NCBI GenBank assembly: GCA_037969565.1
Contig: JBBKXQ010000103.1
Coordinates: 107-64,106, forward strand
Source: Acidimicrobiales bacterium
Lineage (GTDB): Bacteria > Actinomycetota > Acidimicrobiia > Acidimicrobiales > SZUA-35
Length of the DNA: 64,000 nt
Direction of reading: 5' to 3'
A program made the translations under genes and the position numbers. The stretch's first letter is position 1; every line of letters begins with the position of its first letter. Shown in pieces: positions 36,080 through 54,145 of the stretch. The notes under the pieces were generated by a model. That model was not told the origin of the DNA, did not search any database, and saw nothing but the letters and a program-made list of their open reading frames with translations.

Positions 36080-36081
36080 GT

Positions 36082-37837: not shown

Positions 37838-39126
37838 CAGTGGGCTCCTCCTTCGGTCGCCGAACCGACCATTGGTGTGCGGTCGGCCGTGACGTGCACT
37901 TCGTTCAGGCCGGCGTCGTCGAGTCGTTCGGCCCGAGAGTTCTTGACGGCGATACGCACGAGAAGCCAGCCGATCCCGAGTCCGATGATGCCGATGGCGA
38001 GTACGACCGTGGTGTCGGCGAAGGTGCTGTTGTCGAACAGGCCGACATTTCCGTCTCGGGCGACGCGGAGGGCAGCAAGGATCAACATCCAACCGAGCGA
38101 AAGCGGAATGAGGACCTTCCAGCCGAGATCCATCAGTTGGTCGTAACGGACCCGAGGCAATGTTGCCCGGAACCAGACGAACATGAAGAGGAAGACGAGC
38201 AGCTTCAGGAAGAACCAGACGAAACCCCAGAGCGCTCCCGGTAGGAAGCCGAAGTCGGGTCCGCTCGGTCCGCCGAAGAACAGGGTGACGATGATGGCTC
38301 CCATCGTGACTGTGTTCATGAACTCAGCGAGGAAGAAGAGCGCGAATCGGATCGAGGAGTACTCGGTATGGAATCCGCCGACGAGTTCCTGCTCGGCTTC
38401 GACCAGGTCGAACGGCGGCCGATTGAGTTCGGCCGTGCCGGCGATGAGGAACACGATGAACGGAATGAACCCGGTGACGACCACATTCCAGGTTCGGATG
38501 TCGCCGGCCTGACTGAACACGATCTCGTGGGTACTGAGGGTGCCGCTGACCAGAATCACCGACGCCAGCGAAAGACCGAGGGCGGCCTCGTAGGAGATGG
38601 CCTGGGCCGAGGCTCGGACGGCTCCGAGCAGCGGGTACTTCGATCCCGAGGACCAACCGGCGAGCAAGATTCCGTAGATGCCGAGTGAACTCATCGCGAG
38701 GAAGAACAGGATGCCGATCGGCAGATCGGCGACCTGCCAGAGGAACTCACGCCCGAAAATGGTGGAACTTCCGGAGCCATCTCCGGAGAAATCACCGGCC
38801 AGTGGAACCAAGGTGAAGGTGAGGAACGCCGGAACCAGGGCCAGATAGGGCGCCAGTTGGAAGACGTAACGATCAGCCTTGGTGGGGATGATGTCTTCTT
38901 TGAAGAACAGCTTGATCCCATCGGCGAGGGTCTGGAGCATTCCGAACGGGCCGGCGACGTTGGGCCCGAGGCGGTTCTGGAGCCGCCCGACCACCTTGCG
39001 CTCGAACCAGACCATCAGCATGGTGGAAACAAGGCAGATCACGAAGGACGCAACCACCATCACGAGAACGAGGATCACATCACCGAAATCAACACCGTCG
39101 GCTAGAAAAGGTTGCCCGCCGTTCAT
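37837..39126 (-). CDS. nuoH: NADH-quinone oxidoreductase subunit H (14-gene operon)
   Basis: 429 aa with RLGPNVAGPFGMLQTLADGIKLFFKEDIIP and GGFHTEYSSIRF. Confidence 0.95.
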   Translation of the reverse strand: MNGGQPFLADGVDFGDVILVLVMVVASFVICLVSTMLMVWFERKVVGRLQNRLGPNVAGPFGMLQTLADGIKLFFKEDIIPTKADRYVFQLAPYLALVPAFLTFTLVPLAGDFSGDGSGSSTIFGREFLWQVADLPIGILFFLAMSSLGIYGILLAGWSSGSKYPLLGAVRASAQAISYEAALGLSLASVILVSGTLSTHEIVFSQAGDIRTWNVVVTGFIPFIVFLIAGTAELNRPPFDLVEAEQELVGGFHTEYSSIRFALFFLAEFMNTVTMGAIIVTLFFGGPSGPDFGFLPGALWGFVWFFLKLLVFLFMFVWFRATLPRVRYDQLMDLGWKVLIPLSLGWMLILAALRVARDGNVGLFDNSTFADTTVVLAIGIIGLGIGWLLVRIAVKNSRAERLDDAGLNEVHVTADRTPMVGSATEGGAH

Positions 39127-41558: not shown

Positions 41559-43054
41559 CGGTGGCCGACCTCTTCCCTTGCATCTCGTTGGGCGGGGTTT
41601 GTTTCCGCCGAGCTTGGTTGGGCGGAGATCGCGCCGGCAACGGCTGCTGGTGCCGCCACGATCTTCGCTTCGAATTCGCTCCGGAACCGTCGAATGGCCG
41701 AGGTGATCGGCGCCACCGAGGACGGGCCGAGCGGACAGATCGTCGTCTGTGAGCGGTATGGAAAGGGGATCGCCTCGAGATTGCCCTCACCGAAGGCCGC
41801 CACTGGGTAGGCACCGGGGGTGATGTTCTGCCCGATCTCGATCAAGAGATCGATGTCTTCGGGCCGGCCCAGACCATCATCGATGCGTTGCAGCACCTTC
41901 TCTTCCCAGCTCGTGCCCTCCCGACAGGGGGTGCACTTACCGCACGACTCACGGGCGAAGAATCGCACCAGACGAAGCGCCGCCTTCACGATGTCGGTGG
42001 TTTCGTCCATGACCATCAAGGCTCCGGACCCGAGCATCGAACCGGCGGCTCCGACATCTGCCGCCTCGATCTTGATGTCGAGTTGCTCCTCGAAGAACCA
42101 CGGGGCCGAACCACCACCGGGCACGTAGGCCTTCAGTTCGTTGTCGTCCTTGATCCCTTGGCAGAAATTCTCGCCGTAGAACAGATCCCGGAACGAGACC
42201 TTCCCTTGCTCGATCTCGTAAACGCCCGGCCGCTTGACGTGGCCGCTGATGGCGAGCATCCGCGTGCCCGGGGACTTCTCTGAGCCGTACTTCTTGAACT
42301 CGGCCGCGCCGTTGACCATGATCCACGGAAGGTTGGCCAGCGTTTCGACGTTGTTGACGATCGTGGGCTTCATGTAGACGCCCTTGGCCGCTGGAAAGAA
42401 CGGCGGTTTCAGACGTGGTTGGCCCCGATTACCTTCGAGGCTCTCGATGAGGGCTGTTTCTTCACCGACGATGTAGGCACCAGCACCCCAGTGGAGCACC
42501 ACATCGATGTTCACGTCGGTGCCGAGAATGTGTTTGCCGACATAGCCGGCGGCATAGGCGTCGTTGAGCGCTTGCGCGATGTTCTCCTGGGCCTGGGCCA
42601 TCTCGCCCCGGACGTAGAGAAAACACTGATTGAGCCCCAGCGCGTAGCAGGCGATGATGCAACCCTCGATCAACTGATGCGGATCGCGCTCCATGAGCAG
42701 GCGATCCTTGTAGGTGCCGGGCTCGGACTCGTCGCCGTTGACCACGAGATAACGGGGCCACACCGGAGGCAGGAAACTCCATTTGATGCCGGCCGGGAAA
42801 CCCGCTCCGCCCCGACCGAGCAGAACGGCCTCCTTCACCTCTGCCGCGATGTCGGCCGGTTGACGTCGCAGGGCCGCCTTGAGTCCGTCGTATCCGCCGG
42901 TGGCCAGCGACCGCTCGAGCGTGTGGCTGTCGGCGTGACCGAAGCGACTCGTGACGATCTTCGGGCCTTCGTTGTCGACGTAACCGGGCGCGCTCGGCAC
43001 GTAGTCGTTCGTCCGGCGGCCAGGGTTGGACGTTCGATGGTTTTCGGTACTCAC
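41555..43054 (-). CDS. nuoF: NADH-quinone oxidoreductase subunit F (14-gene operon)
   Basis: Start at GTG 43054 (GTGA overlap with the nuoE stop). Contains GRGGAGFPAGIKW (FMN site) and ESCGKCTPCREG (N3 cluster). Confidence 0.93.
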   Translation of the reverse strand: MSTENHRTSNPGRRTNDYVPSAPGYVDNEGPKIVTSRFGHADSHTLERSLATGGYDGLKAALRRQPADIAAEVKEAVLLGRGGAGFPAGIKWSFLPPVWPRYLVVNGDESEPGTYKDRLLMERDPHQLIEGCIIACYALGLNQCFLYVRGEMAQAQENIAQALNDAYAAGYVGKHILGTDVNIDVVLHWGAGAYIVGEETALIESLEGNRGQPRLKPPFFPAAKGVYMKPTIVNNVETLANLPWIMVNGAAEFKKYGSEKSPGTRMLAISGHVKRPGVYEIEQGKVSFRDLFYGENFCQGIKDDNELKAYVPGGGSAPWFFEEQLDIKIEAADVGAAGSMLGSGALMVMDETTDIVKAALRLVRFFARESCGKCTPCREGTSWEEKVLQRIDDGLGRPEDIDLLIEIGQNITPGAYPVAAFGEGNLEAIPFPYRSQTTICPLGPSSVAPITSAIRRFRSEFEAKIVAAPAAVAGAISAQPSSAETNPAQRDAREEVGHR

Positions 43055-43674
43055 GAGACTTCCTCCGGGGCCGGCTGCCGGCTGGTGAACCATGCCGGCG
43101 TACCTGCATCTTCGGGGGTTTCGACTCCGCCGAGCCGATCGGGGGCGATGTGCTGGCGCACATGGCCGAGGGTGCCGTGGCTGGGAATCTCGGGCCGTTT
43201 GCCCGACCGGAGGTCGTCGATCAGCCGATCGAAATCTTGGTTGTCGAGCCGGTACTCGTAGCGGTAATTGACCTGCAGGCAGGGCGCCTCGGTGCAGGCG
43301 GCGATGCATTCGACATCTTCGAGGGTGAAGAGGCCGTCATCGGTGGTGCCACCCGGTCGGACGCCCAACTTTTCCTCGGCGTGATGGAGCAGATCCTCGG
43401 CGCCGAGCAACTGGCAGGAAAGATTCGTGCAGATGTCGATCTTGTATTTGCCGACGGGATGCAGCACGAACATCTCATAGAACGTACAGGTGCCCATGAC
43501 CTCGGCCGGAGTGATCCCGACCAGTTCGCCGAGGTGCTCCATCGCATCTTCGGCGACGTATCCATCCTGCTCCTGAGCCAGATGGAGCAGTGGAATAAGG
43601 GCTGACTTGGGGCGCGGGTAACGGGCGATGATTTCACGCGCCAAAGCCTCGTTGTCTGCGGTCAAACGACTCAA
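43051..43674 (-). CDS. nuoE: NADH-quinone oxidoreductase subunit E (14-gene operon)
   Basis: 207 aa with a TTG start. 2Fe-2S ligand context ICTNLSC...ECIAACTEAP. Confidence 0.9.
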   Translation of the reverse strand: MSRLTADNEALAREIIARYPRPKSALIPLLHLAQEQDGYVAEDAMEHLGELVGITPAEVMGTCTFYEMFVLHPVGKYKIDICTNLSCQLLGAEDLLHHAEEKLGVRPGGTTDDGLFTLEDVECIAACTEAPCLQVNYRYEYRLDNQDFDRLIDDLRSGKRPEIPSHGTLGHVRQHIAPDRLGGVETPEDAGTPAWFTSRQPAPEEVS

Positions 43675-43679
43675 GAGCT

Positions 43680-45026
43680 CTACCTGTCTACTTCGCCGAG
43701 GATCGGGTCGACACTGGAGATGATGGCCACGGTGTCGGCCAAGAGTGAATCAGCCATCATGTGCGACATCGCTTGGAGATTGACGAAACTCGGGGCACGG
43801 AAGTGCATCCGATAGGGCTTCGACGAGCCGTCGGAAACGATGTAGCAGCCGAGTTCGCCACGGGGGGATTCGACGGCAACATAGGTTTCCCCCACCGGAA
43901 CTTTGAAGCCCTCAGTGAAGATCTTGAAATGGTGGATGAGGGCCTCCATCGACTCGTCGATTCGGGCCCGCGGGGGTGGGGTGACTTTCGTGTCTTGCAC
44001 CCGGTAATCGCCCTTGGGCATACCGTCGACGATCTGATGAATCATCCGGATCGATTCCCGGATCTCGTTGAGCCGGATCGCGTATCGGTCGAAGCAATCG
44101 CCGTAGGTGCCGACGACGACATCGAACTCGAGTTGGTCGTACGCCAGGTAGGGCATGTCACGACGGAGATCCCATTCGACTCCGGTGCTCCGCAGCACTG
44201 GCCCGGTTGTGGAGAGCGCAATGGCTTCGGCCGAAGTGAGCACACCGACGCCTTGCAGTCGGTCTCGCCAGATCGGCTGGCCCGTCATCAAGATGTCGTA
44301 TTCCTCGAGTCGGGGTGGGAGCATCGCCATCAACGCCAGAACATCATCCCGCCAGCCGTCGGGCAGGTCGACGGCAACCCCGCCGGGCCGGATGTAGTTG
44401 TGGTTCATCCGCAGACCGGTGACGGCCTCGAAGAATCGCAGCACTTGTTCGCGCTCGCGCCAGCCGTAGATCATCATCGAAACGGCGCCGAGGTCCATGC
44501 CGTTGGTGGCCATGAACAGTAGGTGGGACGAGATCCGATTCAGCTCACTCATGAGCATCCGGATCCACGTGGCCCGAGCCGGAACCTCGATCTGGAGAAG
44601 CTCCTCGACGGCCAGTGAGAACACCAACTCGTTGAAGAACGGCGCGGCGTAGTCCATTCGAGTGACGTTTGTCGGGCCCTGGAGGTAAGTGAGGTTCTCG
44701 GCCGTCTTCTCCATACCCGTGTGGAGGTAACCGACGATCGGCTTGGACCGCCGGATCGTTTCGCCATCCATCTCGAGCATCAGTCGAAGCACCCCATGGG
44801 TCGACGGGTGCGCCGGTCCCATGTTGATCAGCATCGTCTGGTCGTTCTCGTCGTCGAGGGGACTGTCGGCGAGTTCGGCGGCACGTACCTCGGACATGCG
44901 AAGCACTGCACTCTTGCGGGGCAGACGGTCGAGTTGGGTGGCGAGCGCGCCAGCCTCGACGGCGGCTTCAGCCTCGTCGGTGGTGTCGATCGTGGATTCG
45001 GATTTGGAGTTCTCGGTGACGGTCAT
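43680..45026 (-). CDS. nuoD: NADH-quinone oxidoreductase subunit D (14-gene operon)
   Basis: 448 aa with NMGPAHPSTHGVLRLM, GYLHTGMEKT and C-terminal PILGEVDR. Confidence 0.95.
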   Translation of the reverse strand: MTVTENSKSESTIDTTDEAEAAVEAGALATQLDRLPRKSAVLRMSEVRAAELADSPLDDENDQTMLINMGPAHPSTHGVLRLMLEMDGETIRRSKPIVGYLHTGMEKTAENLTYLQGPTNVTRMDYAAPFFNELVFSLAVEELLQIEVPARATWIRMLMSELNRISSHLLFMATNGMDLGAVSMMIYGWREREQVLRFFEAVTGLRMNHNYIRPGGVAVDLPDGWRDDVLALMAMLPPRLEEYDILMTGQPIWRDRLQGVGVLTSAEAIALSTTGPVLRSTGVEWDLRRDMPYLAYDQLEFDVVVGTYGDCFDRYAIRLNEIRESIRMIHQIVDGMPKGDYRVQDTKVTPPPRARIDESMEALIHHFKIFTEGFKVPVGETYVAVESPRGELGCYIVSDGSSKPYRMHFRAPSFVNLQAMSHMMADSLLADTVAIISSVDPILGEVDR

Positions 45027-45034
45027 TGTGGGCC

Positions 45035-45589
45035 TCAGCGCGACGCGGGCGAACCTTTGAACTGCACGGGGATGGTTCCGGTTGCGAAATCCTTACGGAG
45101 AGGATGGCCTTCCCAGTGCTCGGGCATCATGATTCGGGACAGATCCGGGTGATTCTCGAACACGATGCCCATGAGGTCATAGACCTCACGTTCGAGCGTG
45201 TCGGTGCCGGGAAACGTCGAGTACAACGAGTCGATGGTGGGGTCGGATTCGGGGACCTGCACTCGAGCCCGAATTCGGTTGCGGCGTTCGTGGGAAATGA
45301 ACGACGCCACGAGTTCATATCGCTCCGGAGTGACCCCCGCAGGAAGCGAGCGCCGGCCTTGGAATGTGAGGTAGTCGACGGCAGTGACATCGACACACAT
45401 GTTCCATCCGTCGCGAAAGAGATCGGAGGCAACCTGGAGCCACTGCTCCCGAGAGGGATGAATGACCCGCTGCTCGTTGGCATAGGTGACCGGGCAGCCG
45501 TATGCGAGTTCGGGGCCCGCCGCCTCGACGACGTCACCGTTCTCGGTTTCGTCGCCAGCGTTTTGGGCGTCAGCGATGTCTGCACTCAT
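45035..45589 (-). CDS. nuoC: NADH-quinone oxidoreductase subunit C (14-gene operon)
   Basis: 184 aa with [35 protein letters not shown]. Confidence 0.92.
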
Positions 45590-46179
45590 CGCTTGCGACC
45601 GGGCGTGAGAAGTTGCTGGATCTCGCCTTGACCATCACGCTGCTCGATCAGGATTCCGGCGCCACCGCCGTTGGCACGCCGACGCCGCATCAGCTCGCCG
45701 GTTTCGATCTGCGTGTGCAGTGTCTCGATTGCATGGAGCAGTGTTTCCGGGCCGGGCGGGCAACCCGGGGCATAGACATCGACGGGAACGATCTGGTCGA
45801 CCCCCTGAACGATGGCGTAGTTGTTGAACATGCCACCCGTGGACGCGCAAACACCCATCGAGATGACCCATTTGGGTTCCGCCATCTGGTCGTAGATCTG
45901 CCGGAGCACAGGAGCCATTTTCTGACTCACGCGGCCGGCCACGATCATGACGTCGGCCTGGCGGGGCGACGCCCGGAACACTTCCATTCCCAGCCGGGCG
46001 AGGTCGTAGTGCGACCCACCGGTGGCCATCATCTCGATTGCGCAACAGGCAAGTCCGAACGTGGCCGGCCACGACGAACGAGACCGACTCCAACGAACGA
46101 GGTTCTCGAGTTGACCGGTGACGAAGTTGTGTTCGAGACCACCGAGGCCATCTTGCTGGACATCGCCGATGATGCCCAT
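45586..46179 (-). CDS. nuoB: NADH-quinone oxidoreductase subunit B (14-gene operon)
   Basis: 197 aa with [21 protein letters not shown] and GCPPGPETL. Confidence 0.95.
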
Positions 46180-46709
46180 CAGTGAGCGCCGACCGGTTCG
46201 AGTTCTGCCTCGGTTTGTGTCGTAGCTGGAACCAAGGAGGCCGCGGCTGCCGCTGGGACCTCGTCATAGCGACCTTCGAGCCCGACCCGCCGCACGGTGG
46301 AGTTCGAGGTGCGATCACCACCGACCATGGCCACTTGGCGACGGTTGGTCTGCAGGGGACCCCAGTCGAGTGCTCCCTTGGAAACGAGGTAGAGGAAGGA
46401 CTCGAAGACCAGGGCCGAGAACAACAACATCGACAACAAGCCGTAGAGGGCGAGTTCCCGATGGATCAGCGCCCACGGATAGAGAAAGACGATTTCGATG
46501 TCGAAGACGATGAACAACATCGCGACGAGGTAGAAGCGCACGGGAAACCGTTGTGGCGGTTCCCGGCCGGGGACGATTCCGCATTCGTACGGGGCATATT
46601 TCATGGTCGTCGGACGACGGGGGGCCAAGATCTTTGACGCGATCAAACTCACTCCGGCAAACAAGACGGCCAGAACCAGCAACGCCGCTACTGGTAGATA
46701 CTGGGCCAT
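46179..46709 (-). CDS. nuoA: NADH-quinone oxidoreductase subunit A with a ~55-aa C-terminal extension (14-gene operon)
   Basis: 176 aa with YECGIVP...[30 protein letters not shown] lies upstream of ATG 46709. Confidence 0.92.
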
Positions 46710-46727: not shown

Positions 46728-47753
46728 TCAGGCAGCAGCTGCGGCTCGGATGCTTCGTTCCCGCTTGTCACGGGTGTGGAGCATCCACGAGAGCACAGCA
46801 AACAAGATGCCGTTGAAGATGGCAAACAGGGCGGGGGTGACACGGGAACCGCCGAACAGTGCGGGCAGAGGGCCACCTCGGTCGCGTTCGAGTACGACCG
46901 TGACCACCGGTTTCTCCGGATCGGCGGCTGCGACCGGCGGTGCTTCACCCGGCAGTGTCGGTACATCGATCACGCCCTGGAACTGAATGGCCACCAACTC
47001 CTGCGGATGCCAGAAATGGATGAAGGTGGTGTCGAGCTTGTGCACGATTCGATCCGGGGCGTCGGTGAAGAGCTCGACCCAGGCGCTCTTCGTCGGATCG
47101 TCCTCGGAAATGGCCGGGTCGAGAAGTGGTTTGCCGCCGATGTTGAAGGCCCCGTAGGTGAGGGGCACGAACTCTGACGAGTTGGGGAACACACCTTCTT
47201 CGAGCAGGAACTCTTCGGACGAAGACGATGCCTCACCGCGGCGAGGGTTGGACGTTTCGAGGTAGCGCCACCCGGCGAAATCGTCGACGTTCGCTCTCGC
47301 GTAGGCAACGGCCTCTTCTTGAGCGATGTCTGGATCGGTGGATGTGACGCCGGCCTCGACCGAGTTGGTCTCGAGATCGAGGCCGAGTTCGGCAACCTTC
47401 TCGTGCTCGGCGAATTCGAGTCCGTCGCTGTCGAATGCCGGGTTGTCGCCGTTGATCTCGACGAGGGCCCAGGACTCGGCCTCGCCCTTCCAACCGATGG
47501 CATACACCGTCCAGACGACTCCCATGAGGAAGAACCAACCGAACAACGCCGAACCAGCGATCAACCCGCCAGTGCGGGATCCGCTGTTGGTTGCGACCAG
47601 AAGATAGGTGCCACCCATGAGCACGACGACCCCGACGAGCACGCTGAGGAGCCCTCGGAAGAACGGGTCGAACGCCACGCCACCGATGAAGGCAAGGGAC
47701 TCGGCGGATGCCCCATCAGTGAGTGCACCGAGGAACGCAATGGAGTGGGACAT
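46728..47753 (-). CDS. Uncharacterised membrane protein (3 N-terminal hydrophobic spans and 1 C-terminal, acidic central domain)
   Basis: 341 aa. Its ATG shares 1 nt with the stop of the upstream cytochrome c gene, and its stop lies 18 nt before nuoA. I recognise no family motif. Confidence 0.7.
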   Translation of the reverse strand: MSHSIAFLGALTDGASAESLAFIGGVAFDPFFRGLLSVLVGVVVLMGGTYLLVATNSGSRTGGLIAGSALFGWFFLMGVVWTVYAIGWKGEAESWALVEINGDNPAFDSDGLEFAEHEKVAELGLDLETNSVEAGVTSTDPDIAQEEAVAYARANVDDFAGWRYLETSNPRRGEASSSSEEFLLEEGVFPNSSEFVPLTYGAFNIGGKPLLDPAISEDDPTKSAWVELFTDAPDRIVHKLDTTFIHFWHPQELVAIQFQGVIDVPTLPGEAPPVAAADPEKPVVTVVLERDRGGPLPALFGGSRVTPALFAIFNGILFAVLSWMLHTRDKRERSIRAAAAA

Positions 47754-49327
47754 CAGAGGCCTCGCTCGTAATCAACAACGGCCTGGATGTACTCGGGAGG
47801 AAGCAGTGCGCCGAAGCCCGGCATCATGCCGGCGGCACTCTGGCCCCCACGTCCGTATCCCTGACCAGCCTCGGCCCCGTTGTAGATGAAGTTGTAATGC
47901 GCGTAGCTGGTGCGCTCCGGCATGTCGATGATCGTGCAATCGCCACCAAGTCGTCCGTCGTCGAATTCGACGACCTCACCCGACAGATCGGCGGCGGTGA
48001 GGACAGGAGGATCGATGAATCCGGCGGTGGCGGTGACACCCTCGGGCAGCTCGGCGGGGGCCACCTGCAACGCGAAGTCGGAGGCGTAGGGATAGGCGTT
48101 GGCCGAGACTCCGGCCGGCTCCCAGAGGTTGGAGATGGTGAGGCAATCGGCCAAGTCACCATCGGTGATGACCCGATAGAGGACTTCTCCGCCGTTTTCG
48201 TCCGTCCGGGCGGCGACAGGGAGGCCCTTGTCGTCGAGCCGAACCTTGGATCCGTCCATTGCTTCGTAATAGAAACCCTCGTCATCGGGGATTCCGCCTT
48301 CGGGAGACCAACTCCCGTCGATCCGCTTCCAGGTGTCATCGGGGAAGCGATTCAGAACGCCTCCGGCGCACAGGTTGAACCCGATGCCTGACGGATTACC
48401 GCCTCCGCACCCGGCAACACCGTCGGCCAACGGATCGCCGCCCGGTACCGGAGCAGTCGGGCCCAGGGACCAACCGCCGGTGTGGCAACGTCCGCAGCTG
48501 AGCGAAGCGTTCTGGAAACTGGAGAAGTAACCGAGGTTGAAGACGGCTTCTCCGAGCGTGTCGAACTCGCCGGCGTCGAGAGACCGTTGGAGCTCCACGT
48601 CGATCAGCTCGGCCTGCTTTTCAGCAGCCGCTCGGGCCACCACCGATTCGGCGTCGTTGGGATCGTCGGTACCGGCTGCAGCAATGGCGATGGGGTCGAG
48701 GGTGGGAACTTCGAAGAGCTTGATGTACTTGATCACGTTGGTGATCTGTTGCTCGGTGAGCGGTCCGCCTCCGGGTACGCCCCAGGCCGCCATCGGCGAT
48801 CCCGGCCGCCCATAATTGAGAATGTAGGTGACTTCCTCGATCGAGTAGCGGAGGAACACGTTGTTCAGCGCCGGAGCAACCCAGGATGCGTTGGCGAGGA
48901 ACTGGCCATCTTGATCCTGCAGCACATAAGGAGCGGCACCACCGACGCCACCCGCGGCGTGGCAGTTCACACACTGCGCTGTTCGGATGTAGACACCTTC
49001 GCCCCGGCTCTCGAAGTTGAGCTGGTAAGCGTCGACGGCACCCTCTTGTCGCCCGGGCTCGGCCAACCAATAGAACGGCAACGAAAGGGCGACGATCGCC
49101 ATCAGGACGAGCGCGAAGCTCAACGACCAGTCGAGCTTCTTCCCTTCGAGGTCTTCATCGGAGTAGTACTCCTTCTTGTTCGCCGCCAGTTCGATCTCGG
49201 AACCGAGTTCGGCTCGAGCCTGGAACGAGTTGCGGACGAAGAGCAGGACGAAGCCGAGGAGAACAACGACGGCGACGGTGAGACCGATCGCTCGGAAGTT
49301 CGCGGCGAATATTGCGGCACTTGTCAT
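47753..49327 (-). CDS. Membrane-anchored diheme c-type cytochrome, unusually long (524 aa)
   Basis: N-terminal hydrophobic anchor. Two CxxCH motifs (CVNCH and CGRCH) are separated by about 170 aa. There is a long C-terminal domain with no further heme motif. Confidence 0.85.
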   Translation of the reverse strand: MTSAAIFAANFRAIGLTVAVVVLLGFVLLFVRNSFQARAELGSEIELAANKKEYYSDEDLEGKKLDWSLSFALVLMAIVALSLPFYWLAEPGRQEGAVDAYQLNFESRGEGVYIRTAQCVNCHAAGGVGGAAPYVLQDQDGQFLANASWVAPALNNVFLRYSIEEVTYILNYGRPGSPMAAWGVPGGGPLTEQQITNVIKYIKLFEVPTLDPIAIAAAGTDDPNDAESVVARAAAEKQAELIDVELQRSLDAGEFDTLGEAVFNLGYFSSFQNASLSCGRCHTGGWSLGPTAPVPGGDPLADGVAGCGGGNPSGIGFNLCAGGVLNRFPDDTWKRIDGSWSPEGGIPDDEGFYYEAMDGSKVRLDDKGLPVAARTDENGGEVLYRVITDGDLADCLTISNLWEPAGVSANAYPYASDFALQVAPAELPEGVTATAGFIDPPVLTAADLSGEVVEFDDGRLGGDCTIIDMPERTSYAHYNFIYNGAEAGQGYGRGGQSAAGMMPGFGALLPPEYIQAVVDYERGL

Positions 49328-50196
49328 CAGTGTTCTTCCGAAGATCCAATGCAGTGGGGACCCTCGGCCTCTTGGCCGGTGGTGTTGGTCCCGATGGGCG
49401 GGCCCTGGATGATAACGCCGGTGTTCACGAGCAATTCATTGCCTGCGCTCACCGTCATGGGGAAGCGGTCCATGCCTCGCGGGGCCGGACCACCCTTCTT
49501 TTCGCCGACACGGTTGTACTGCGAACCGTGACATGGGCACTCGAACCACTGTGAGGTGAGGCACTCGGGAACTCGGCAACCCAGGTGCGGACAGGTTTGG
49601 TAGAGGGCGACGACGCCGGCTTCGAGACCAGGCTCGACCTGGGCGATGAAGCCGTAGCTCGTCTTTGCCTTCTCGAGGGCTGAGGCCGGGTATTCGGTGA
49701 CCCACATCCGACCCTCGGGAACGTAGAAGAACCCGCCGCCAGCTTTGATGCTGGCCTCGACGTCGGCCAAGCGACCGACGTTGATTTGGGAGCCGAAGCC
49801 TTTGGCCCCTTGGGGCCAGAGGAACGCAATACATGCCGCACCGAAGCTGCTGAGGCCGAGGGCAAACGTGGTGACGATGCTGCGGTTGAGGAACTGCCGC
49901 CGAGCGATACCGATGGTCTCGGGGTCGGGCGGCACGTAGGCAACGGGTGCGGTGTCGCGGGCCTTCTCCAGGGCGCCACTCTGTTCGTAGCGGGCAGCCG
50001 CTTCCACGGCCTTTCCGGTGAGAACGAGTTCCTTCTCGTCGTCGGTGTCGAGTCGGACGGCCGAGCGATCGCGCTTGAGCGTCTCGCCGGAGAGTTGCCC
50101 GAAGGCAGCCGACGAATCGCGGCCGCGCAGTGACGCGCCGACCACGAGCAGGGCGACGAGAGCCAGAATCACGATTCCTATGATCAAAACGGTCAT
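49327..50196 (-). CDS. qcrA: Rieske [2Fe-2S] subunit of the cytochrome bc/b6f-type complex
   Basis: CPHLGCRV...CPCHGSQY Rieske boxes with an N-terminal membrane anchor. Confidence 0.92.
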   Translation of the reverse strand: MTVLIIGIVILALVALLVVGASLRGRDSSAAFGQLSGETLKRDRSAVRLDTDDEKELVLTGKAVEAAARYEQSGALEKARDTAPVAYVPPDPETIGIARRQFLNRSIVTTFALGLSSFGAACIAFLWPQGAKGFGSQINVGRLADVEASIKAGGGFFYVPEGRMWVTEYPASALEKAKTSYGFIAQVEPGLEAGVVALYQTCPHLGCRVPECLTSQWFECPCHGSQYNRVGEKKGGPAPRGMDRFPMTVSAGNELLVNTGVIIQGPPIGTNTTGQEAEGPHCIGSSEEH

Positions 50197-50220
50197 TGCG
50201 GTACCTCGCTACTTGAGGAT

Positions 50221-50982
50221 CTAGAGCTCGAAGAACAGGCCGGAAGCCCAGGGAAAGACGAAGTTGAAGCCAGGCCCACGGAAGAACGAACCGATGAGCG
50301 TGAGCGTGGCCCAGAACATGAGGAACACGGTGAACAACGAAACCGCGAACTTGCGATCTTCAGGCTTGTTCGACGGGTTCTTGTCGATGTAGGGGGCCAT
50401 CGTGAGCACGATGAGGCCCATGCCGGGCACGGTGACACCGGCGACCATGGGGTGGAACATGGTGAGGAGTTCTTGGAGGCCGAGGAAGTACCACGGGGCC
50501 TTCGACGGGTTCGGCGTCTGGTTCACGTTGGCCAACTCGAGCAGTGGGGCGTTGACGAAGATCGAGAAGATCGTGAGGAAGGCGGTGCAGAACAGTGCGG
50601 CACCGAATTCGACGACGATCAAGTGGGGCCAGGTGTGGACCTTGTCTTGCGGCTTCGACTTCACGTCTTGAATCGAGCCCGACTTCACCACCGTCAGCAG
50701 ACGCTGCGTGTGTCCGGCCGGACCGGTCATGGCTGGAACGTCGGCCACAGCCGTTGCTGCCGCTACTGCCGTACCGACCCCACCGCCACCAACAGCAGCG
50801 ACGTCAGTGCCCTTGGATTTTGCCGACTTCGACCGCTCGAGCAGATGAGCGGGAATCTTGCTCGCCGAAGGATCGGCAGCAGATTCGGTCGAGGCCGCAG
50901 GCGCGGCCGGCTCGCTCGATGCTTCAGCCTTCTTGCGAGCTTCTTCGGCCCGTTTACGGAGATGCTCCGGGATTTCAGTCAT
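50221..50982 (-). CDS. Cytochrome b C-terminal half (subunit IV / PetD-like) with a ~110-aa N-terminal extension
   Basis: PWYFLGLQELL signature and 3 hydrophobic spans. The N-terminal extension is charged and Ala/Pro-rich and holds two copies of an IP[EA]HL[LR][KE]R motif. Confidence 0.88.
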   Translation of the reverse strand: MTEIPEHLRKRAEEARKKAEASSEPAAPAASTESAADPSASKIPAHLLERSKSAKSKGTDVAAVGGGGVGTAVAAATAVADVPAMTGPAGHTQRLLTVVKSGSIQDVKSKPQDKVHTWPHLIVVEFGAALFCTAFLTIFSIFVNAPLLELANVNQTPNPSKAPWYFLGLQELLTMFHPMVAGVTVPGMGLIVLTMAPYIDKNPSNKPEDRKFAVSLFTVFLMFWATLTLIGSFFRGPGFNFVFPWASGLFFEL

Positions 50983-51060
50983 TGCGAGTCCTCTCGGACG
51001 AGTGTGACAGGGGTGAGGGTGACATGAGATTCAGTGCTTTTCTGGGCAGAAACCGGGCGC

Positions 51061-51852
51061 TCAGAGCGGACCGGAAATACCGCCGTCTTTTCGGACCCGC
51101 CAGAAATGGATGGCCATGAAGATGACGGTGACGAAGGGCAAGAGCAAGACGTGGAGCACATACCAACGGAGCAGGGTGTCGGTACCGATCACTTTGCCTC
51201 CGAGGAGAACGAAGCGAACTTGTTCTCCGAAGACCGGTGTGTACCCCATCATGTTCGTGCCGACGGTGACGGCCCACAGTGCGAGCTGATCCCAGGGCAG
51301 TAGGTAGCCGGTGAAGGAGAGGAGCAGCGTCATCTGCAGGAGAATCGTGCCGATGACCCAGTTGAATTCTCGGGGGGCCTTGTACGCGCCGTGGTAGAAG
51401 ACGCGAGCCATGTGGAGGAACACCGACAACACCATGAGGTGGGCCCCCCATCGGTGCATGTTGCGAACGAGCAGTCCGAAGGTGACCGACGTCTGGAGGG
51501 TGTAGATGTCGGTCCACGCCGCCGCCGCTGTCGGGCGATAGAAGAACATCAAGAAGATGCCGGTGACGGTGAGGATGATGAAGAGGAAGAAACTGAGCCC
51601 ACCGAGGCAGAGCGTGTAACTCACCTTCACGGCGTGTCGCTTCACCTTCACGGGGTGAAGGTGGTAGAGCACCGAGTTCATGATGACGTAGGACCGGTTC
51701 CGGGGGCTGTCGGTGTAGCCCTTACGGAACACCGAGCCCGGCCGGAAAATGGAGTTCCACGTCTGCGAGCCCTGGATGGAATCGGTTGCGTTGCCCGCCG
51801 CAGCGGACGCACGCTCGGCGAGCGTGGGCTTGTCTTGAATCGACTTTGCCAT
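51061..51852 (-). CDS. qcrB: Cytochrome b6-type (N-terminal half of a split cytochrome b)
   Basis: 263 aa with NMHRWGAHLMVLSVFLHMARVFYHGAY and LLRWYVLHVLLLPFVTVIFMAIHFWRVRKDGGISGPL, which contain the four heme-ligand His contexts. Confidence 0.92.
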   Translation of the reverse strand: MAKSIQDKPTLAERASAAAGNATDSIQGSQTWNSIFRPGSVFRKGYTDSPRNRSYVIMNSVLYHLHPVKVKRHAVKVSYTLCLGGLSFFLFIILTVTGIFLMFFYRPTAAAAWTDIYTLQTSVTFGLLVRNMHRWGAHLMVLSVFLHMARVFYHGAYKAPREFNWVIGTILLQMTLLLSFTGYLLPWDQLALWAVTVGTNMMGYTPVFGEQVRFVLLGGKVIGTDTLLRWYVLHVLLLPFVTVIFMAIHFWRVRKDGGISGPL

Positions 51853-51955
51853 GAGGTTCCTCGGGTTAGGAATGGTGTTGCTTGTTCGAGCGGAGCGGAT
51901 TGGGATTGCGATTGGAATTACTGAGCGGGGCGGGTGGAACTGCGGGAATCGAGAA

Positions 51956-52372
51956 TCAGGCGAGGCGCATGCCGTAGCCGTAGCCGTATGACTCGGTGCG
52001 TTGATGGAAGTCGCCGGTGGGATTCGGGTCGACGATCTTGCCGAGAATGATCACGCCCGTTGGGCAGCGATCGACGCACAGTGCACAGCGGGTGCAAACG
52101 TCGTCGTCGATCGTGAAGATGAATGCGTCAGAAGGATCGTCGCCCGGCTTGGCGACGCCGTAGCTCTCACTGATCGAATCAGTGGTTTGCATATGGATGC
52201 ATTTCCACGGACAGATGTCGACACATCCCTCACAAGCAATGCACTCCGACTGATCGATGTGAATGAACTGCTTTGGCTTGACGGCCTTCGACAAGTAGTC
52301 GGCATCGACCTCGACGAGGATGTAGTCGTCACGAAATTCCGGGAGCGGTGGGTTTGCGTCGGTGGTGACCAT
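51956..52372 (-). CDS. 2x[4Fe-4S] dicluster ferredoxin-domain protein
   Basis: 138 aa with two CxxCxxCxxxCP motifs (CIACEGCVDICP and CTRCALCVDRCP). It sits 9 nt after the upstream membrane-protein gene and 103 nt before cytochrome b6. Confidence 0.88.
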   Translation of the reverse strand: MVTTDANPPLPEFRDDYILVEVDADYLSKAVKPKQFIHIDQSECIACEGCVDICPWKCIHMQTTDSISESYGVAKPGDDPSDAFIFTIDDDVCTRCALCVDRCPTGVIILGKIVDPNPTGDFHQRTESYGYGYGMRLA

Positions 52373-52381
52373 ACGGCAGCC

Positions 52382-52822
52382 TCAGCCTCTCTTCACGAGC
52401 GGTCGGCCATAGGAGCTCGTGGCGACGTCGGTCGAGGGCTTGGCCTTGCCCCGGTTCTGCCACTGCGACCACATGACGATCATTGCACCGAGGTAGATGT
52501 TGTAGATCACGACGGCGCCGAGATCGGAAAGCACCCGGTAGGTGATCTCGAATGGGAACCAACCACCACGGCTCTGCGCCGCGATCAAACCCCAGGCGTC
52601 CCAGATCCGGTCGGCTCGGAAGCTCCACTCGTTCTCGGCCAGGGTGAGCCACTGGTGGGGAACCACGCCGAACACGATGAAGAGCAAGAAGTAGATGTAG
52701 ATGGCGAAGAGCATCGACTCGCCCCACGTCATGTGATCTTCCGGGGCGCGACGTTTCCCGTAGACGACAATGCCACCGGCCATGGCGAGTGAGATCAAGA
52801 TTGAAACCACGAGGGCGACCAT
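52382..52822 (-). CDS. Small uncharacterised integral membrane protein, first gene of the bc-nuo array
   Basis: 146 aa with about 3 hydrophobic spans. GAGGAG lies 6 nt upstream of ATG 52822. No recognised motif. Confidence 0.7.
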   Translation of the reverse strand: MVALVVSILISLAMAGGIVVYGKRRAPEDHMTWGESMLFAIYIYFLLFIVFGVVPHQWLTLAENEWSFRADRIWDAWGLIAAQSRGGWFPFEITYRVLSDLGAVVIYNIYLGAMIVMWSQWQNRGKAKPSTDVATSSYGRPLVKRG

Positions 52823-52940: not shown

Positions 52941-53272
52941 TCTAATCGGCCACGAGGCGCCGCACACAAACCGCGGCGAATTGAAATACTGCGGTTGGAG
53001 GACGCATCGTTGCCCCACGGTGCGAGGACTCGCTCCATGCGACGCCTAGGTGTAGCACGACGAGAAGCAATCGACCATCACTGGGCGTTGGAGATCGTCG
53101 ATGAATGTCGTCGGTACGGAACTCGTTGAATCGCTCGACGATCGCCTACAGTGCAGCGCCGTCGGGTCGATGTGATGCAAACGCGCCACATCGCACCCAG
53201 GTGGTTCGCCACTTTCGCACCGTTTTCTCTACCGTTCGTTCAACCGCCACCACTTCTCTGGCCGAGGGCACA

Positions 53273-54145
53273 GTGACTGAAATTCCCGAACACCTCCTCA
53301 AGCGAAGCCGAGCCGCAAAGGGCAAGCCCGATGAGGCTGCGCCGGCAGCGGCCGTCGAGGCATCCGGCGAGAAGCCGGCCGCTCCCGTGGCTGCCGGGCC
53401 ACCCGCACTCGCCAAGGCCGCAGCTTCGATCTCGGCTGATCCGGCACCGGCTGCAGCAGCCCCGGTTCCTCACTACATCGCCGCAGCCAACGCCCGACGC
53501 CGACTTCCGGTGTGGGCCTTCTTCATCCTGGGTTTCCTGCCCCTGTGGGCCATCTCGTTCGCCGGCACGATGCAACAGCCGGAGGTCGAAGACCCACTGT
53601 TCACCGAGGCTGCGCTCGTCTACACCCAAACCGGCGGTTGCTCGGGCTGCCATGGCGCGGGCGGTGGCGGCGGAGTCGGCTACAAGTTCTCCGACGGCGA
53701 GATCATCAAGTCGTTCCCCAACGCCATCGACCAGATGGTGCACGTTGCCCGAGGCTCGGCCGCAATCCTCGATGAGCAGTACGGGAATCCCGATCGCGAA
53801 GGTGGAGCCAGGATCTCCGGAGCCCGAGCCAACGGAGCGATGCCGGCGATGACGGGAGTCCTCACCCTGAGCGAGCTCGAACTCGTGATCTTCCACGAGC
53901 GAGCCGTGCTGGGCGGCGAAGACACCACCAGCCCCGAGTACGTGGAATGGATCGATCATCTCCGCGAATCGGCTGAAGCAGGCGGCGGATCGCCGCTGTC
54001 CGATGCCGACCTCGAGCTTCTCCTGAAGTGCGCCGATCCAGTGATGACTCCGGGAGCAACCGGCGAAGGATCCACCGGCGATGACGGCGAAAGCAACTGT
54101 CCCGGCCCGAAGGCTGCGGCCAGCAACGAAGCGGCCTCCAGCTAA
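53273..54145 (+). CDS. Membrane-anchored monoheme class I c-type cytochrome
   Basis: Start placed at GTG 53273 (GAGGG 6 nt upstream), giving VTEIPEHLLKRSRAAKGK. An Ala/Pro linker and one hydrophobic span follow, then CSGCH and a distal GAMPAM (Met ligand context). Confidence 0.8.
   Translation: MTEIPEHLLKRSRAAKGKPDEAAPAAAVEASGEKPAAPVAAGPPALAKAAASISADPAPAAAAPVPHYIAAANARRRLPVWAFFILGFLPLWAISFAGTMQQPEVEDPLFTEAALVYTQTGGCSGCHGAGGGGGVGYKFSDGEIIKSFPNAIDQMVHVARGSAAILDEQYGNPDREGGARISGARANGAMPAMTGVLTLSELELVIFHERAVLGGEDTTSPEYVEWIDHLRESAEAGGGSPLSDADLELLLKCADPVMTPGATGEGSTGDDGESNCPGPKAAASNEAASS

Follow-up and report, generated by a model that had tools for sequence, protein, structure and literature searches.

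A split cytochrome b/Rieske locus with an embedded ferredoxin gene conserved across Acidimicrobiia

The window analysed here, a stretch of 64,000 nucleotides, carries a seven-gene Rieske/cytochrome b module, a complete complex I operon downstream of it and a divergently transcribed cytochrome c gene. The features are as follows:

M146, 52382..52822, minus strand: 146-aa membrane protein with three helices, first gene of the module
Fd138, 51956..52372, minus strand: 138-aa soluble 2x[4Fe-4S] ferredoxin with Fer4 domains
Cytochrome b6, 51061..51852, minus strand: 263 aa, four-helix split type (Pfam Cytochrome_B, 5.6e-45)
Subunit IV (PetD-like), 50221..50982, minus strand: 253 aa (Pfam Cytochrom_B_C)
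Rieske [2Fe-2S] protein, 49327..50196, minus strand: 289 aa (Pfam Rieske), CPHLGC / CPCHGS
Membrane-anchored dihaem cytochrome c, 47753..49327, minus strand: 524 aa, two class-I-like domains
M341, 46728..47753, minus strand: 341-aa membrane protein
nuoA-N, 30502..46709, minus strand: complete complex I operon of 14 subunits, separated by 18 nt from M341, which precedes it
Membrane-anchored monohaem cytochrome c, 53105..54145, plus strand: divergently transcribed, CSGCH179, one transmembrane (TM) segment
Complex I-like operon, 13709-24736, in the same window: 11 subunits, without nuoE/F/G

All seven minus-strand open reading frames were recovered with exactly the coordinates and lengths given in a preliminary description of this DNA, and its domain calls (ferredoxin, cytochrome b6, subunit IV/PetD-like protein, Rieske protein and two-CxxCH cytochrome c) hold up in searches of Pfam and NCBIfam. 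From M146 through Fd138, b6, subunit IV, Rieske protein and dihaem cytochrome c to M341, the intergenic distances are 9, 103, 78, 24, -1 and -1 nt; the two -1 nt gaps are the 1-nt stop/start overlaps claimed for the last three genes, while the wording "tightly packed" is slightly generous for the gaps of 103 and 78 nt. Homologues of each frame number in the hundreds to thousands, and 80 related genomes keep the gene order wherever the contig is long enough, so the seven are real genes and not chance reading frames. The 103-nt gap between Fd138 and b6 could leave room for a promoter. Among the nuoA-N subunits, nuoA, B, C, D, E, F, G, I, J, L, M and N were detected by name; this operon, the APWY motif of subunit IV and the haem-ci CxGG cysteine of cytochrome b6 had been missed earlier. 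A haem biosynthesis cluster lies just upstream of the module.

The redox core resembles photosynthetic b6f in its split b6 and subunit IV, its haem-ci cysteine and its haem histidines, which stand in register. The split of cytochrome b over separate genes was confirmed, and the closest PDB relatives of the window's b6 are b6f cytochrome b6 chains (E 4e-47). C82 aligns with Cys35, the haem ci/cn cysteine; H133/147/234/249 align with H86/100/187/202; and F250 and R254 align with F203 and R207. TLCLGG (CxGG) is present in 74/74 b6 orthologues. The b6 protein also has a conserved, basic N-terminal extension of ~47 residues on the cytoplasmic side, which, including H64/H66/H73, is conserved in both the Acidimicrobiia and the distant locus sets. 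Subunit IV carries the Qo motif APWY at residue 162, kept in 67/67 and 45/45 orthologues of the two locus sets, and a cytoplasmic N-terminal tail of ~115 aa with two IPxHL(L/R)xR(S/A) motifs, at residues 4 and 43. The Rieske protein has an extra N-terminal TM helix and a cytoplasmic loop of ~80 aa, an internal twin-arginine motif (ARRQFL) precedes its second TM helix, and its box II is CPCHGSQY, with the Ser and Tyr of CxCHGS.Y kept in both locus sets. In anammox Rieske proteins, the CHGS.Y signature has been used to argue for a high-potential centre and hence for a very low-potential bL (PMC12954380).

Kao & Hunte (2014, PMC4122944) reported that split Acidimicrobidae cytochromes b fall in the PEWY-cyt c or the APWY clade, and CxGG was described for the latter. 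By its sequence, the core of the module is assigned to the APWY clade, and it probably corresponds to what Dibrova et al. call subfamily G (PMC5600118). The preliminary description had allowed that the arrangement might be a bc subclass already named and with characterised subunits; the core clade is indeed named, but it is a clade without characterised subunits, and no description of the small ferredoxin, or of a minimal ferredoxin version of the complex, was found in the literature searched. The small dedicated ferredoxin is the new element; the core clade itself was already known.

Fd138 contains two CxxCxxCxxxCP motifs plus Cys58 on motif scan; no TM helix or signal peptide was predicted in it, and the domain search gave no flavin or NAD(P) domain. 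Its designation as low-potential is assumed. Both cluster motifs are retained in 80/80 orthologues, and outside them the N- and C-terminal extensions are family-specific and conserved. Identity across Acidimicrobiia is 73-92%, against 77-95% for b6, which points to strong constraint, about as strong as that on b6. The family is isolated, with 38 representatives at E<=1e-30 among 1.84 billion. A GAGG lies inside the M146 3' end, ahead of the Fd138 start, and together with the 9-nt gap it makes translational coupling of M146 and Fd138 plausible. Assignment of Fd138 as NuoI is ruled out, as both nuo operons carry their own NuoI. Database M146-Fd and Fd-b6 "fusions" look like frameshifted assemblies and are therefore of no use as Rosetta stones.

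The two membrane proteins, described earlier as unknown, remained without a match in family and fold searches; each has 3 predicted TM segments. None of the 492 homologues of M146 is named or has a Pfam domain; they share the invariant motifs PHQWLT.AENE, GGWFPF and C-terminal GRPL. Its AF2 model (pLDDT 86) has helices at 2-24, 33-65 and 95-122; a Foldseek search of the PDB gave no match (best E=1.1), and the PDB sequence search gave nothing credible, its hits being confined to 13-residue stretches of ETV6 fusion proteins, which are unrelated (E>=0.0065). Predictions put its basic C-tail (+5) in the cytoplasm and its PHQW/GGWFPF loop on the outer side. M341 comprises N-terminal helices, an acidic extracytoplasmic alpha/beta domain of ~210 aa and a C-terminal TM helix (AF2 pLDDT 82); its 223 homologues are unnamed and lack Pfam domains, and searches gave neither a PDB fold match (best E 0.28, TM<=0.15) nor a profile match. 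M146 may be the membrane partner or anchor of Fd138, and M341 may be an accessory subunit specific to the lineage or an assembly factor.

The 524-aa dihaem cytochrome c has two N-terminal TM segments, and its two far-apart CxxCH motifs, noted earlier, are CVNCH119 and CGRCH278, with PMAAW (178-182) and MMPGF (501-505) as Met-ligand motifs. Two CxxCH motifs occur in 62/63 orthologues. What had been called a long extra C-terminal domain is actually a variable insertion of ~140 aa within the second class-I domain, at residues ~329-471, between CGRCH and MMPGF. It occurs in <60% of 64 orthologues, which range in length from 349 to 547 aa. A PDB sequence search with this protein found no relative.

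The ferredoxin is encoded in at least 578 species genomes, of which the best 80, all Acidimicrobiia, were sampled. The order M146-Fd-b6-subunit IV-Rieske-cytochrome c-M341 was found in 80/80 as far as the contigs reach, with M146 upstream of Fd138 in 80/80 and M341 in all 63 loci reaching its position, so the ferredoxin and both membrane proteins show conserved synteny with the split b genes. A diverged version of the locus occurs in Nitriliruptoria, Egibacteraceae and other Actinomycetota, with a weak M146 HMM match directly upstream of the ferredoxin in 37 distant loci and M341 in 26. The ferredoxin gene lies directly upstream of b6 in the 80 Acidimicrobiia loci and in 76/76 informative distant loci (156/156). 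In every Acidimicrobiia locus long enough, nuoA/B follow M341, and module and complex I are probably co-transcribed there; in the distant set they do not follow, and since the adjacency to b6 holds in these loci too, the ferredoxin goes with b6 and not with nuo. The arrangement was called atypical, which is correct against classical Actinomycetes, but it is the norm for the whole class Acidimicrobiia. Judged by this distribution, the module is most likely the standard complex III locus of a large actinobacterial group.

When members of its own family are set aside, Fd138 has its closest single-domain relatives in the C-terminal Fe-S domains of three NAD(P)/FAD oxidoreductases, two of which are encoded in APWY-type Rieske/cytochrome b clusters of anammox-type arrangement. 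These two, P0499 and P0500, are 35-41% identical to Fd138 over up to residues 1-112, a likeness that is modest; a Rieske gene directly follows P0499, and P0500 is preceded by genes for a b6 that shares 62% identity with the b6 of the window and for a subunit IV with APWY. The third, P0510, is encoded outside any Rieske/cytochrome b cluster, and the Fe-S similarity may therefore be a general feature of GltD-like enzymes. Oxidoreductases of this kind have been reported to migrate together with the complex in Kuenenia, and models place them on the n-side with an Fe-S chain up to haem cN (PMC12954380; PMC5600118). Fd138 thus has a related Fe-S domain but differs from the anammox-type subunits in lacking the flavin/NAD(P) module. 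The anammox bc analogy, offered earlier as inference, has in this way gained a homology link.

We consider it fairly probable that the module is a class-wide menaquinol:cytochrome c reductase, the main complex III of Acidimicrobiia, and that Fd138 is bound to its cytoplasmic face, close to haem ci. Physical association of Fd138, M146 and M341 with the core seems a reasonably favoured reading. The redox core would consist of b6 (haems bL, bH and covalent haem ci), subunit IV, the Rieske protein and the membrane-anchored dihaem cytochrome c. By homology with b6f and bc complexes, menaquinol would be oxidised at a Qo site made by b6 and subunit IV; one electron would pass from the Rieske protein through the dihaem cytochrome c to a membrane-anchored cytochrome c or terminal oxidase, and the other from bL to bH and to haem ci on the cytoplasmic side. 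Fd138 would be a bound n-side subunit, docked on a basic platform of b6 N-extension, subunit IV tail and M146 C-tail and exchanging electrons with the low-potential chain at its haem bH/ci end, while M146 and M341 would be lineage-specific accessory membrane subunits. The net charges (+8, +3 and +5 for the three platform elements vs -12 for Fd138, pI 4.4) agree with such docking, but basic cytoplasmic loops are expected from the positive-inside rule alone, which weakens the charge argument.

The exchange between Fd138 and haem ci, and its direction, we only infer. To an exit, in which Qo bifurcation would drive the reduction of a low-potential acceptor in the way suggested for anammox complexes, we give clearly less than even odds; to an entry, with flow from ferredoxin to menaquinone like the proposed b6f cyclic route, slightly lower ones; and the rest of the probability falls to a role in internal buffering or structure alone. 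For aerobic heterotrophs, there is no obvious need for quinol-driven ferredoxin reduction. The constancy of the ferredoxin and the two membrane proteins hints at a possible extra cytoplasmic-side electron route, and if the Fd138 port is real, the complex gains a side route to cytoplasmic redox partners.

Three other explanations were weighed. Fd138 could be bound while the complex runs a plain Q cycle, its clusters buffering or sharing electrons between the dimer's two haem-ci/Qi sites, or being relics of a lost oxidoreductase module, without cytoplasmic exchange. The conserved haem-ci pocket (the F203/R207 equivalents) is compatible with a wholly ordinary Q cycle needing no ferredoxin, the chain is a full aerobic-type one with complex I directly downstream, Fd138 has no flavin or NAD(P) domain, and an additional redox centre, a haem b, has been proposed as an n-side dimer bridge in the AF3 models for anammox (PMC12954380). 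This reading is unlikely, however: a buffer does not obviously require a separate soluble protein, and the eight cluster cysteines and the surface extensions are kept at 73-92% class-wide and across much deeper divergence, which argues for a selected redox function.

It is improbable that Fd138 is a free cytoplasmic carrier, merely co-regulated, for instance one that feeds electrons to the NuoEFG-less complex I-like enzyme or to other enzymes that depend on ferredoxin. It does lack a TM helix or anchor and is separated from b6 by 103 nt, and enzymes of the NuoEFG-less type, like that encoded in the window, elsewhere use ferredoxin or F420H2; but it always lies between M146 and b6 in the informative loci, also where nuo is not adjacent, the family occurs in b6 context only across every locus sampled, and extensions so highly conserved are typical of fixed protein interfaces. 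A role of Fd138, with or without M146, in biogenesis, as reductant or scaffold for haem-ci attachment or in cytoplasmic-side Rieske/haem maturation, is quite improbable. In chloroplasts and cyanobacteria, haem ci requires dedicated n-side maturation factors (the CCB system), and we know of no equivalents for Gram-positive b6-type complexes; M146 is small and membrane-bound, with invariant aromatic/His motifs and no family match, and the upstream haem genes would fit. However, the PHQW/GGWFPF loop is predicted on the outer side rather than the n-side, His56 is not conserved in distant M146-like proteins, the closest Fd138 relatives are electron-transfer domains of oxidoreductases, and assembly factors rarely match a catalytic subunit in conservation as Fd138 matches b6.

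For the reductase as preferred here, the monohaem cytochrome c is a likely electron acceptor. Its gene was detected in 70/80 Acidimicrobiia loci: in 66 it lies upstream of M146 on the opposite strand, and in 4 the strand is the same. Translation probably begins at the in-frame GTG at 53273, which is preceded by GAGGG and gives a protein of 290 aa with the N-terminus MTEIPEHLLKRS. The protein has an IPEHLLKRS motif in common with subunit IV.

The preliminary description had placed seven tightly packed genes on the minus strand, and all seven open reading frames (ORFs) were confirmed exactly. They are given here from upstream to downstream, followed by the divergent gene that lies upstream of the module.

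52382-52822, minus strand: ORF of M146, a 146-aa membrane protein
51956-52372, minus strand: ORF of Fd138, a 138-aa protein assigned by Pfam/NCBIfam as a 2x[4Fe-4S] ferredoxin
51061-51852, minus strand: ORF of cytochrome b6, assigned by Pfam/NCBIfam
50221-50982, minus strand: ORF of subunit IV, PetD-like, Pfam Cytochrom_B_C, with three transmembrane (TM) segments
49327-50196, minus strand: ORF of the Rieske protein, assigned by Pfam/NCBIfam
47753-49327, minus strand: ORF of the 524-aa cytochrome c, assigned by Pfam/NCBIfam as a c-type cytochrome
46728-47753, minus strand: ORF of M341, a 341-aa membrane protein
53105-54145, plus strand: membrane-anchored monohaem cytochrome c, divergent from the module

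The intergenic distances along the module are 9, 103, 78, 24, -1 and -1 nt, and nuoA begins 18 nt past M341, opening a complete nuoA-N operon that continues on the same strand to position 30502. A scan of 46000-53400 for promoters and terminators gave no informative sites. About 6 kb downstream of this 14-gene nuo operon, a second complex I-like operon is present at 13709-24736 on the minus strand, with the order nuoA-B-C-D-H-I-J-K-L-M-N and without nuoE/F/G between D and H. In other organisms, eleven-subunit complex I-like enzymes take ferredoxin or F420H2 as donor, so there may be a respiratory branch here that is linked to ferredoxin independently of Fd138.

The closest solved relatives of the window b6 are the cytochrome b6 chains of b6f complexes (E 4e-47). 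In the alignment to solved chains, which include 6rqf_I and 1q90_B, C82 corresponds to Cys35, the residue that binds haem ci/cn covalently; H133, H147, H234 and H249 correspond to the four haem-b ligands of solved b6f b6, and F250 and R254 to the haem-cn pocket residues F203 and R207. By alignment, b6 is predicted to carry haems bp, bn and cn and is paired with a three-helix subunit IV. The haem-ci motif CxGG appears as LCLGG at residues 81-85, and TLCLGG is kept in all 74 orthologues from the Acidimicrobiia set, which comprises the 80 loci of the best relatives. The N-terminus of b6 has about 47 extra residues, which are basic (+8) and highly conserved, including H64, H66 and H73; the stretch YHLHPVKVKRH at residues 64-73 of this cytoplasmic extension is conserved in the Acidimicrobiia set and also in a distant set of 80 further loci from other Actinomycetota. 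From AF3 models of anammox complexes it has been proposed that an extra haem b, located where the two monomers meet, is ligated by a His in the N-terminal region of each cytochrome b (PMC12954380).

Subunit IV carries the Qo motif APWY at residue 162, and APWYF[LM] is found in 67/67 Acidimicrobiia and 45/45 distant orthologues. It also has a cytoplasmic tail of about 115 residues. The motif (M)TEIPEHL(L/R)KR(S/A)..AK occurs twice in the N-terminal tail on the cytoplasmic side (residues 4 and 43; 50947-50973 and 50830-50856, minus strand) and once more at the probable N-terminus of the divergent monohaem cytochrome c (53282-53308, plus strand). The longest ORF probably gives the wrong start for this cytochrome; a GTG in frame at 53273, with GAGGG upstream, would give a 290-aa cytochrome c starting MTEIPEHLLKRS, parallel to the N-terminus of subunit IV, and a 285-aa gene lies at the same position in one related locus (L081). 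In the 80 Acidimicrobiia loci, IPEHL-type motifs were found only at the subunit IV and divergent cytochrome c positions, and they are absent from the distant set. The same cytoplasmic peptide on two different membrane proteins suggests a common binding partner or targeting signal.

The Rieske protein has box II as CPCHGSQY, and its Rieske boxes are kept in 65/66 Acidimicrobiia orthologues; the hydrogen-bonding Ser and Tyr of box II are both kept in all lineages sampled. Its topology is unusual, with an N-terminal TM helix (3-21) followed by a cytoplasmic loop of about 80 aa, and the twin-arginine motif [TAS]RRQFL is internal, just before the second TM helix; an RRQFL-type motif is present in 42 of the 66 orthologues. 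Besides two TM helices, the 524-aa cytochrome c contains a pair of class-I-like domains, where domain 1 has CVNCH119 and the Met-ligand motif PMAAW, and domain 2 contains CGRCH278 and MMPGF. Two CxxCH motifs are present in 62/63 Acidimicrobiia orthologues. The long extra C-terminal domain that had been attributed to this protein has to be redefined: the extra residues, about 140, do exist, but they form a variable insertion (~329-471) inside domain 2, which is found in less than 60% of 64 orthologues with lengths of 349-547 aa. A sequence search of the 524-aa protein against the PDB gave no relative.

Neither membrane protein could be assigned to a known family, since in Pfam/NCBIfam M146 has no match above any cut-off and M341 has no match whatever. 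M146 has 492 detectable homologues, all without names, and contains the invariant motifs PHQWLT.AENE, GGWFPF and the C-terminal YGRPL.K.G. AlphaFold2 predicts a three-helix bundle with confidence (pLDDT 86), for which Foldseek found no significant fold match in the PDB, and its profile found nothing credible among PDB sequences, only 13-residue stretches in unrelated ETV6 fusion proteins. From the positive-inside rule, the conserved loop of M146 is predicted to face outward and its basic tail (+5) to be cytoplasmic. Similarly, M341 has 223 homologues, all without names; in its model (pLDDT 82), helices at the N-terminus precede an alpha/beta ectodomain, which is acidic (net -29), and a TM helix ends the chain, and no match was obtained by Foldseek against the PDB, by profile against PDB sequences or in Pfam, where all 41 alignment members were searched. 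Both proteins would be accessory subunits of the complex.

Fd138 contains two CxxCxxCxxxCP motifs and a conserved ninth Cys, and both cluster motifs are kept in 80/80 orthologues. The extensions outside the cluster region are conserved too, with DANPPLPEF at the N-terminus and YGYGYGMRL at the C-terminus. Because the protein has neither a TM helix nor an export signal, it is expected to be cytoplasmic. The family is small and isolated: among 1.84 billion cluster representatives, phmmer gave 681 matches at E<=1e-3, many of them fragments, and 38 at E<=1e-30. Outside the family, the top single-domain matches come from proteins of 595-685 aa that combine Fer4_20 and Pyr_redox_2 (FAD/NAD(P)) domains with a dicluster domain at the C-terminus, and it is this last domain that Fd138 matches. 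For instance, the database proteins P0499 and P0500 both have the full Fer4_20 plus Pyr_redox_2 architecture; P0499 aligns with residues 1-112 of Fd138 at 35% identity (pairwise E 3e-19) with an inter-cluster insert of equal length, and P0500 is 41% identical, a non-cluster relative, P0510, scoring similarly. The gene for P0499 has a Rieske gene immediately after it with overlapping stop and start, and the locus of P0500 is preceded by a b6 62% identical to that of the window and by a subunit IV with KAPWYFLGLQELL, multihaem cytochromes following; P0510 is encoded outside any Rieske/cytochrome b cluster. Fd138 itself has only Fer4-type dicluster matches and contains no FAD/NAD(P) or Fer4_20 domain. 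Given the architecture of these relatives and the cluster context of P0499 and P0500, Fd138 looks like the Fe-S portion of an anammox-type oxidoreductase subunit without the flavoprotein.

It was also considered whether Fd138 is the NuoI of the adjacent complex I, and this was rejected: both nuo operons of the window encode their own NuoI, the score against TIGR01971 is 44 bits (cut-off 113), and the linkage of the ferredoxin with b6 persists where nuo is not adjacent. Apparent Rosetta-stone fusions of M146 with the ferredoxin or of the ferredoxin with b6 (P0379, P0385, P0386, P0418, P0421, P0427, P0458 and others) were not used as evidence, because their long out-of-frame, low-complexity stretches rich in Arg, Pro and Ser make them most likely products of frameshifted assemblies. 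Such pseudo-fusions call for caution in Rosetta-stone inference from metagenome protein catalogues.

A scan with one genome per species found a relative of Fd138 in at least 578 genomes, the best 80 of which are without exception MAGs from Acidimicrobiia, with Microthrixaceae, Iamiaceae and Ca. Aldehydirespirator among them. The expectation that the ferredoxin and both membrane proteins are syntenic with split cytochrome b in related genomes was borne out by tblastn in every Acidimicrobiia locus that is long enough. In these loci the order M146-Fd-b6-subunit IV-Rieske-cytochrome c-M341-nuoA-nuoB is constant and on one strand, and most also have the divergent cytochrome c upstream; the locus appears to be the standard complex III of Acidimicrobiia. 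Identity to the window proteins is 77-95% for b6, 73-92% for Fd138, 57-85% for subunit IV, 42-78% for the Rieske protein, 33-67% for cytochrome c, 29-66% for M146 and 25-70% for M341, from which it can be seen that Fd138 is about as constrained as the catalytic cytochrome b.

The distant set was reached by a metagenome scan from a few full-length Fd138 relatives of 31-47% identity. By the names of cluster members, some of its loci belong to Nitriliruptorales/Nitriliruptoraceae and Egibacteraceae, and others come from MAGs labelled Actinomycetes, Frankiaceae, Mycobacteriales or plain Actinomycetota. In all 76 loci whose contig extends past the ferredoxin, b6 follows directly, with 55-75% identity and CxGG kept, and after it come an APWY subunit IV, a Rieske protein with CPCHGS.Y and a mostly monohaem cytochrome c, with an M341-like protein in 26 loci. 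The ORF immediately upstream of the ferredoxin gives a weak match to the M146 profile in 37 loci; this homology is credible because of the invariant position, the '(V/I)P.xWL..A(E/D)' element and the basic C-tail, and His56 of M146 is not conserved in these proteins. No nuo gene was found downstream of the module in the distant set, and two loci (L138 and L146) have nuoA/B upstream on the opposite strand, so the module is joined to the nuo operon only in the Acidimicrobiia set. Since the adjacency holds without downstream nuo, the linkage is that of the ferredoxin with b6, not with complex I.

Several known systems share parts of this architecture. The core has the APWY-clade features that were tested, namely APWY, a split cytochrome b and CxGG, and is assigned to this clade by motifs, not by tree placement; its b6 is 62% identical to that of an APWY cluster from another lineage (L163). 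The APWY clade is phylogenetically defined and was described in 2014 as entirely uncharacterised (PMC4122944); its complexes are regarded as mechanistically distinct, and split cytochrome b in Acidimicrobidae (Ilumatobacter) was recorded in the same survey (Kao & Hunte, PMC4122944). Unlike WCMGG, reported as the most common CxGG context in the clade, the context here is TLCLGG. No APWY-clade structure is among the cytochrome b matches in the PDB. We infer, independently of a tree, that the clade probably corresponds to a portion of the subfamily G that Dibrova et al. defined (2013/2017), for which the co-occurrence of oxidoreductases with Rieske/cytochrome b has been noted (Dibrova et al., PMC5600118).

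In Kuenenia, NAD(P) oxidoreductase subunits co-migrate with the Rieske/cytochrome b complex and are modelled on the n-side, the cytoplasmic face; in the models an Fe-S chain leads toward haem cN, and a further haem b lies between the two monomers (PMC12954380). The window module resembles these anammox complexes (Kuste4569-4574 and Kustd1480-1485) in its b6-type core with haem cN, predicted here from the sequence, in a cluster-encoded Fe-S protein of proposed n-side location and in the retained hydrogen-bonding Ser (and Tyr) of the Rieske protein. The 35-41% identity of Fd138 is to the C-terminal dicluster domain of APWY-cluster oxidoreductases, Kuenenia being likened by described architecture only. 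In contrast to the anammox complexes, Fd138 is without Pyr_redox_2 FAD/NAD(P) and Fer4_20 domains, the c-type partner is a dihaem class-I cytochrome rather than a multihaem or HAO-type one, and the hosts are aerobic actinobacteria.

With the b6f complex of cyanobacteria and chloroplasts, the module shares the split b6/subunit IV, the haem cn Cys, the haem ligands and the equivalents of F203 and R207. It differs in having APWY instead of PEWY at Qo and a 47-residue N-terminal extension on b6, and no match to cytochrome f (PetA) or to the PetG/L/M/N families was found among the seven module proteins and the flanking cytochrome c, for ORFs of at least 80 aa. For b6f, a role of ferredoxin (via FNR) in feeding haem cn from the n-side has been put forward; the ferredoxin there is the general photosynthetic one, whereas here it is a dedicated operon gene. 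The actinobacterial QcrCAB (bcc) and Firmicute QcrABC (b6c) complexes share the role of menaquinol:cytochrome c reductase in Gram-positives, the quinone here being presumably menaquinone from the chemotaxonomic background of Acidimicrobiia. The dihaem c subunit is like QcrC in having two CxxCH, each with a Met-ligand motif, a functional likeness with no QcrC model match listed, and b6 and subunit IV are arranged as in Bacillus, except that subunit IV is not fused to cytochrome c. Membership of QcrCAB, which has an unsplit QcrB of ~540 aa and a QcrA with three TM segments, was rejected, with 120 bits against the QcrB model NF050120 (cut-off 500) and 22 against the QcrA model NF050121 (cut-off 275); cytochrome b is split, the motif is APWY and not PDWY, and no cta genes are adjacent in the window.

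The Geobacter Ext cluster (extHIJKLMNOPQS) has a Rieske/b6/subunit IV core of the same type in ExtO/ExtP/ExtQ, and the model NF040969 ('selenite/tellurite reduction operon b-type cytochrome ExtP') gives the window b6 302 bits, just over its cut-off of 290. This assignment was also rejected, because only b6 passes, subunit IV reaching 56 where ExtQ requires 150. The Ext cluster encodes a porin, a rhodanese, a selenocysteine cytochrome and 10-12-haem cytochromes, all four lacking here, and no ferredoxin; the seven module proteins and the flanking cytochrome c include no porin, no rhodanese and no multihaem cytochrome of the kind of ExtKL/M/N/S. Since the ExtP score exceeds its cut-off, automated annotation would give b6 a Geobacter-specific name. 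Members of the Fd138 family are labelled NuoI, HycF or PreA(-like) in public records, and these labels and 'ExtP' are both misleading. In the literature searched, no description was found of a ferredoxin in an actinobacterial b6-type operon, nor of M146 or M341. Because the APWY features are present, the b6f, QcrCAB, Ext and full anammox-type assignments fail and no prior description was found, the complex is classed among the Rieske/cytochrome b complexes with an n-side Fe-S partner, as a minimal-ferredoxin version that is class-wide in Acidimicrobiia and occurs in other Actinomycetota too.

The core is securely a b6-type menaquinol:cytochrome c oxidoreductase with Q-cycle-type bifurcation. 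As judged from sequence data, the balance leans towards a physical association of Fd138, M146 and M341 with it. Fd138 would then be a bound n-side subunit that trades electrons with the haem bH/ci end and is kept in place by the basic extension of b6 together with the tails of subunit IV and M146; the electrostatic complementarity is weak evidence, because the positive-inside rule already predicts basic cytoplasmic loops. The ferredoxin could also be a free protein that is no more than co-regulated, perhaps as a donor to the complex I-like enzyme of the window that lacks NuoEFG, but this seems unlikely, as it is wedged between M146 and b6 in 156/156 informative loci and its extensions are conserved. 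A role as maturation factor, for example for haem ci, is more doubtful still: the conserved loop of M146 is predicted to face outward, and His56 is lost in distant relatives.

For a bound Fd138, we tentatively put forward, as possible rather than probable, that complex III is a bifunctional machine in which the ferredoxin gives the low-potential chain, at its haem bH/ci end, a link with the cytoplasm, as exit or as entry; both the cluster potentials and the direction of electron flow are inferred. In the exit mode, bifurcation at Qo would drive the reduction of a low-potential acceptor, paid for by the high-potential branch, and would give an aerobe a quinol-driven ferredoxin-reducing branch. 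In the entry mode, reduced ferredoxin would feed menaquinone via haem ci, as a hard-wired counterpart of the debated ferredoxin:quinone reductase activity of b6f. Exit is favoured by the Rieske Ser and Tyr in all lineages and by the distinctness of APWY; this Ser and Tyr signature has been tied to a raised Rieske potential, and a very low bL potential was inferred from it in anammox (PMC12954380). The conserved haem-ci pocket and the aerobic-type context beside complex I favour entry or else an ordinary Q cycle, in which Fd138 would be bound as a mere internal buffer or relic, an explanation with a small chance of being right.

Oceans, lakes, soils and activated sludge (Microthrix) all hold abundant Acidimicrobiia, and no accessory protein of what appears to be their standard complex III locus carries a name. 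Rieske/cytochrome b complexes as such belong to the textbook enzymes. What haem ci/cn does, and whether it is fed by ferredoxin, has long been asked in b6f research, and anammox bifurcation to low-potential acceptors is proposed, unproven and hard to study. A minimal Fe-S domain beside a haem-ci b6 in cultivable aerobes would make both questions experimentally accessible, and if the bifunctional reading is true, the anammox-type Rieske/cytochrome b mechanism and haem-ci function could both be studied in this complex as a minimal cultivable model.

Further genes surround the module in the window. A haem biosynthesis cluster, hemA-hemC-hemD-hemB-hemL, lies just upstream on the module's strand (56526-62046, minus strand), and many related loci likewise have hemL close to the module. 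Between the divergent cytochrome c gene and hemL, 54081-56519 (plus strand) encodes an 812-aa protein with four DUF4214 repeats and an fn3 domain, and a 713-aa DUF4214 protein is likewise encoded near the module in L081 (583-2724).
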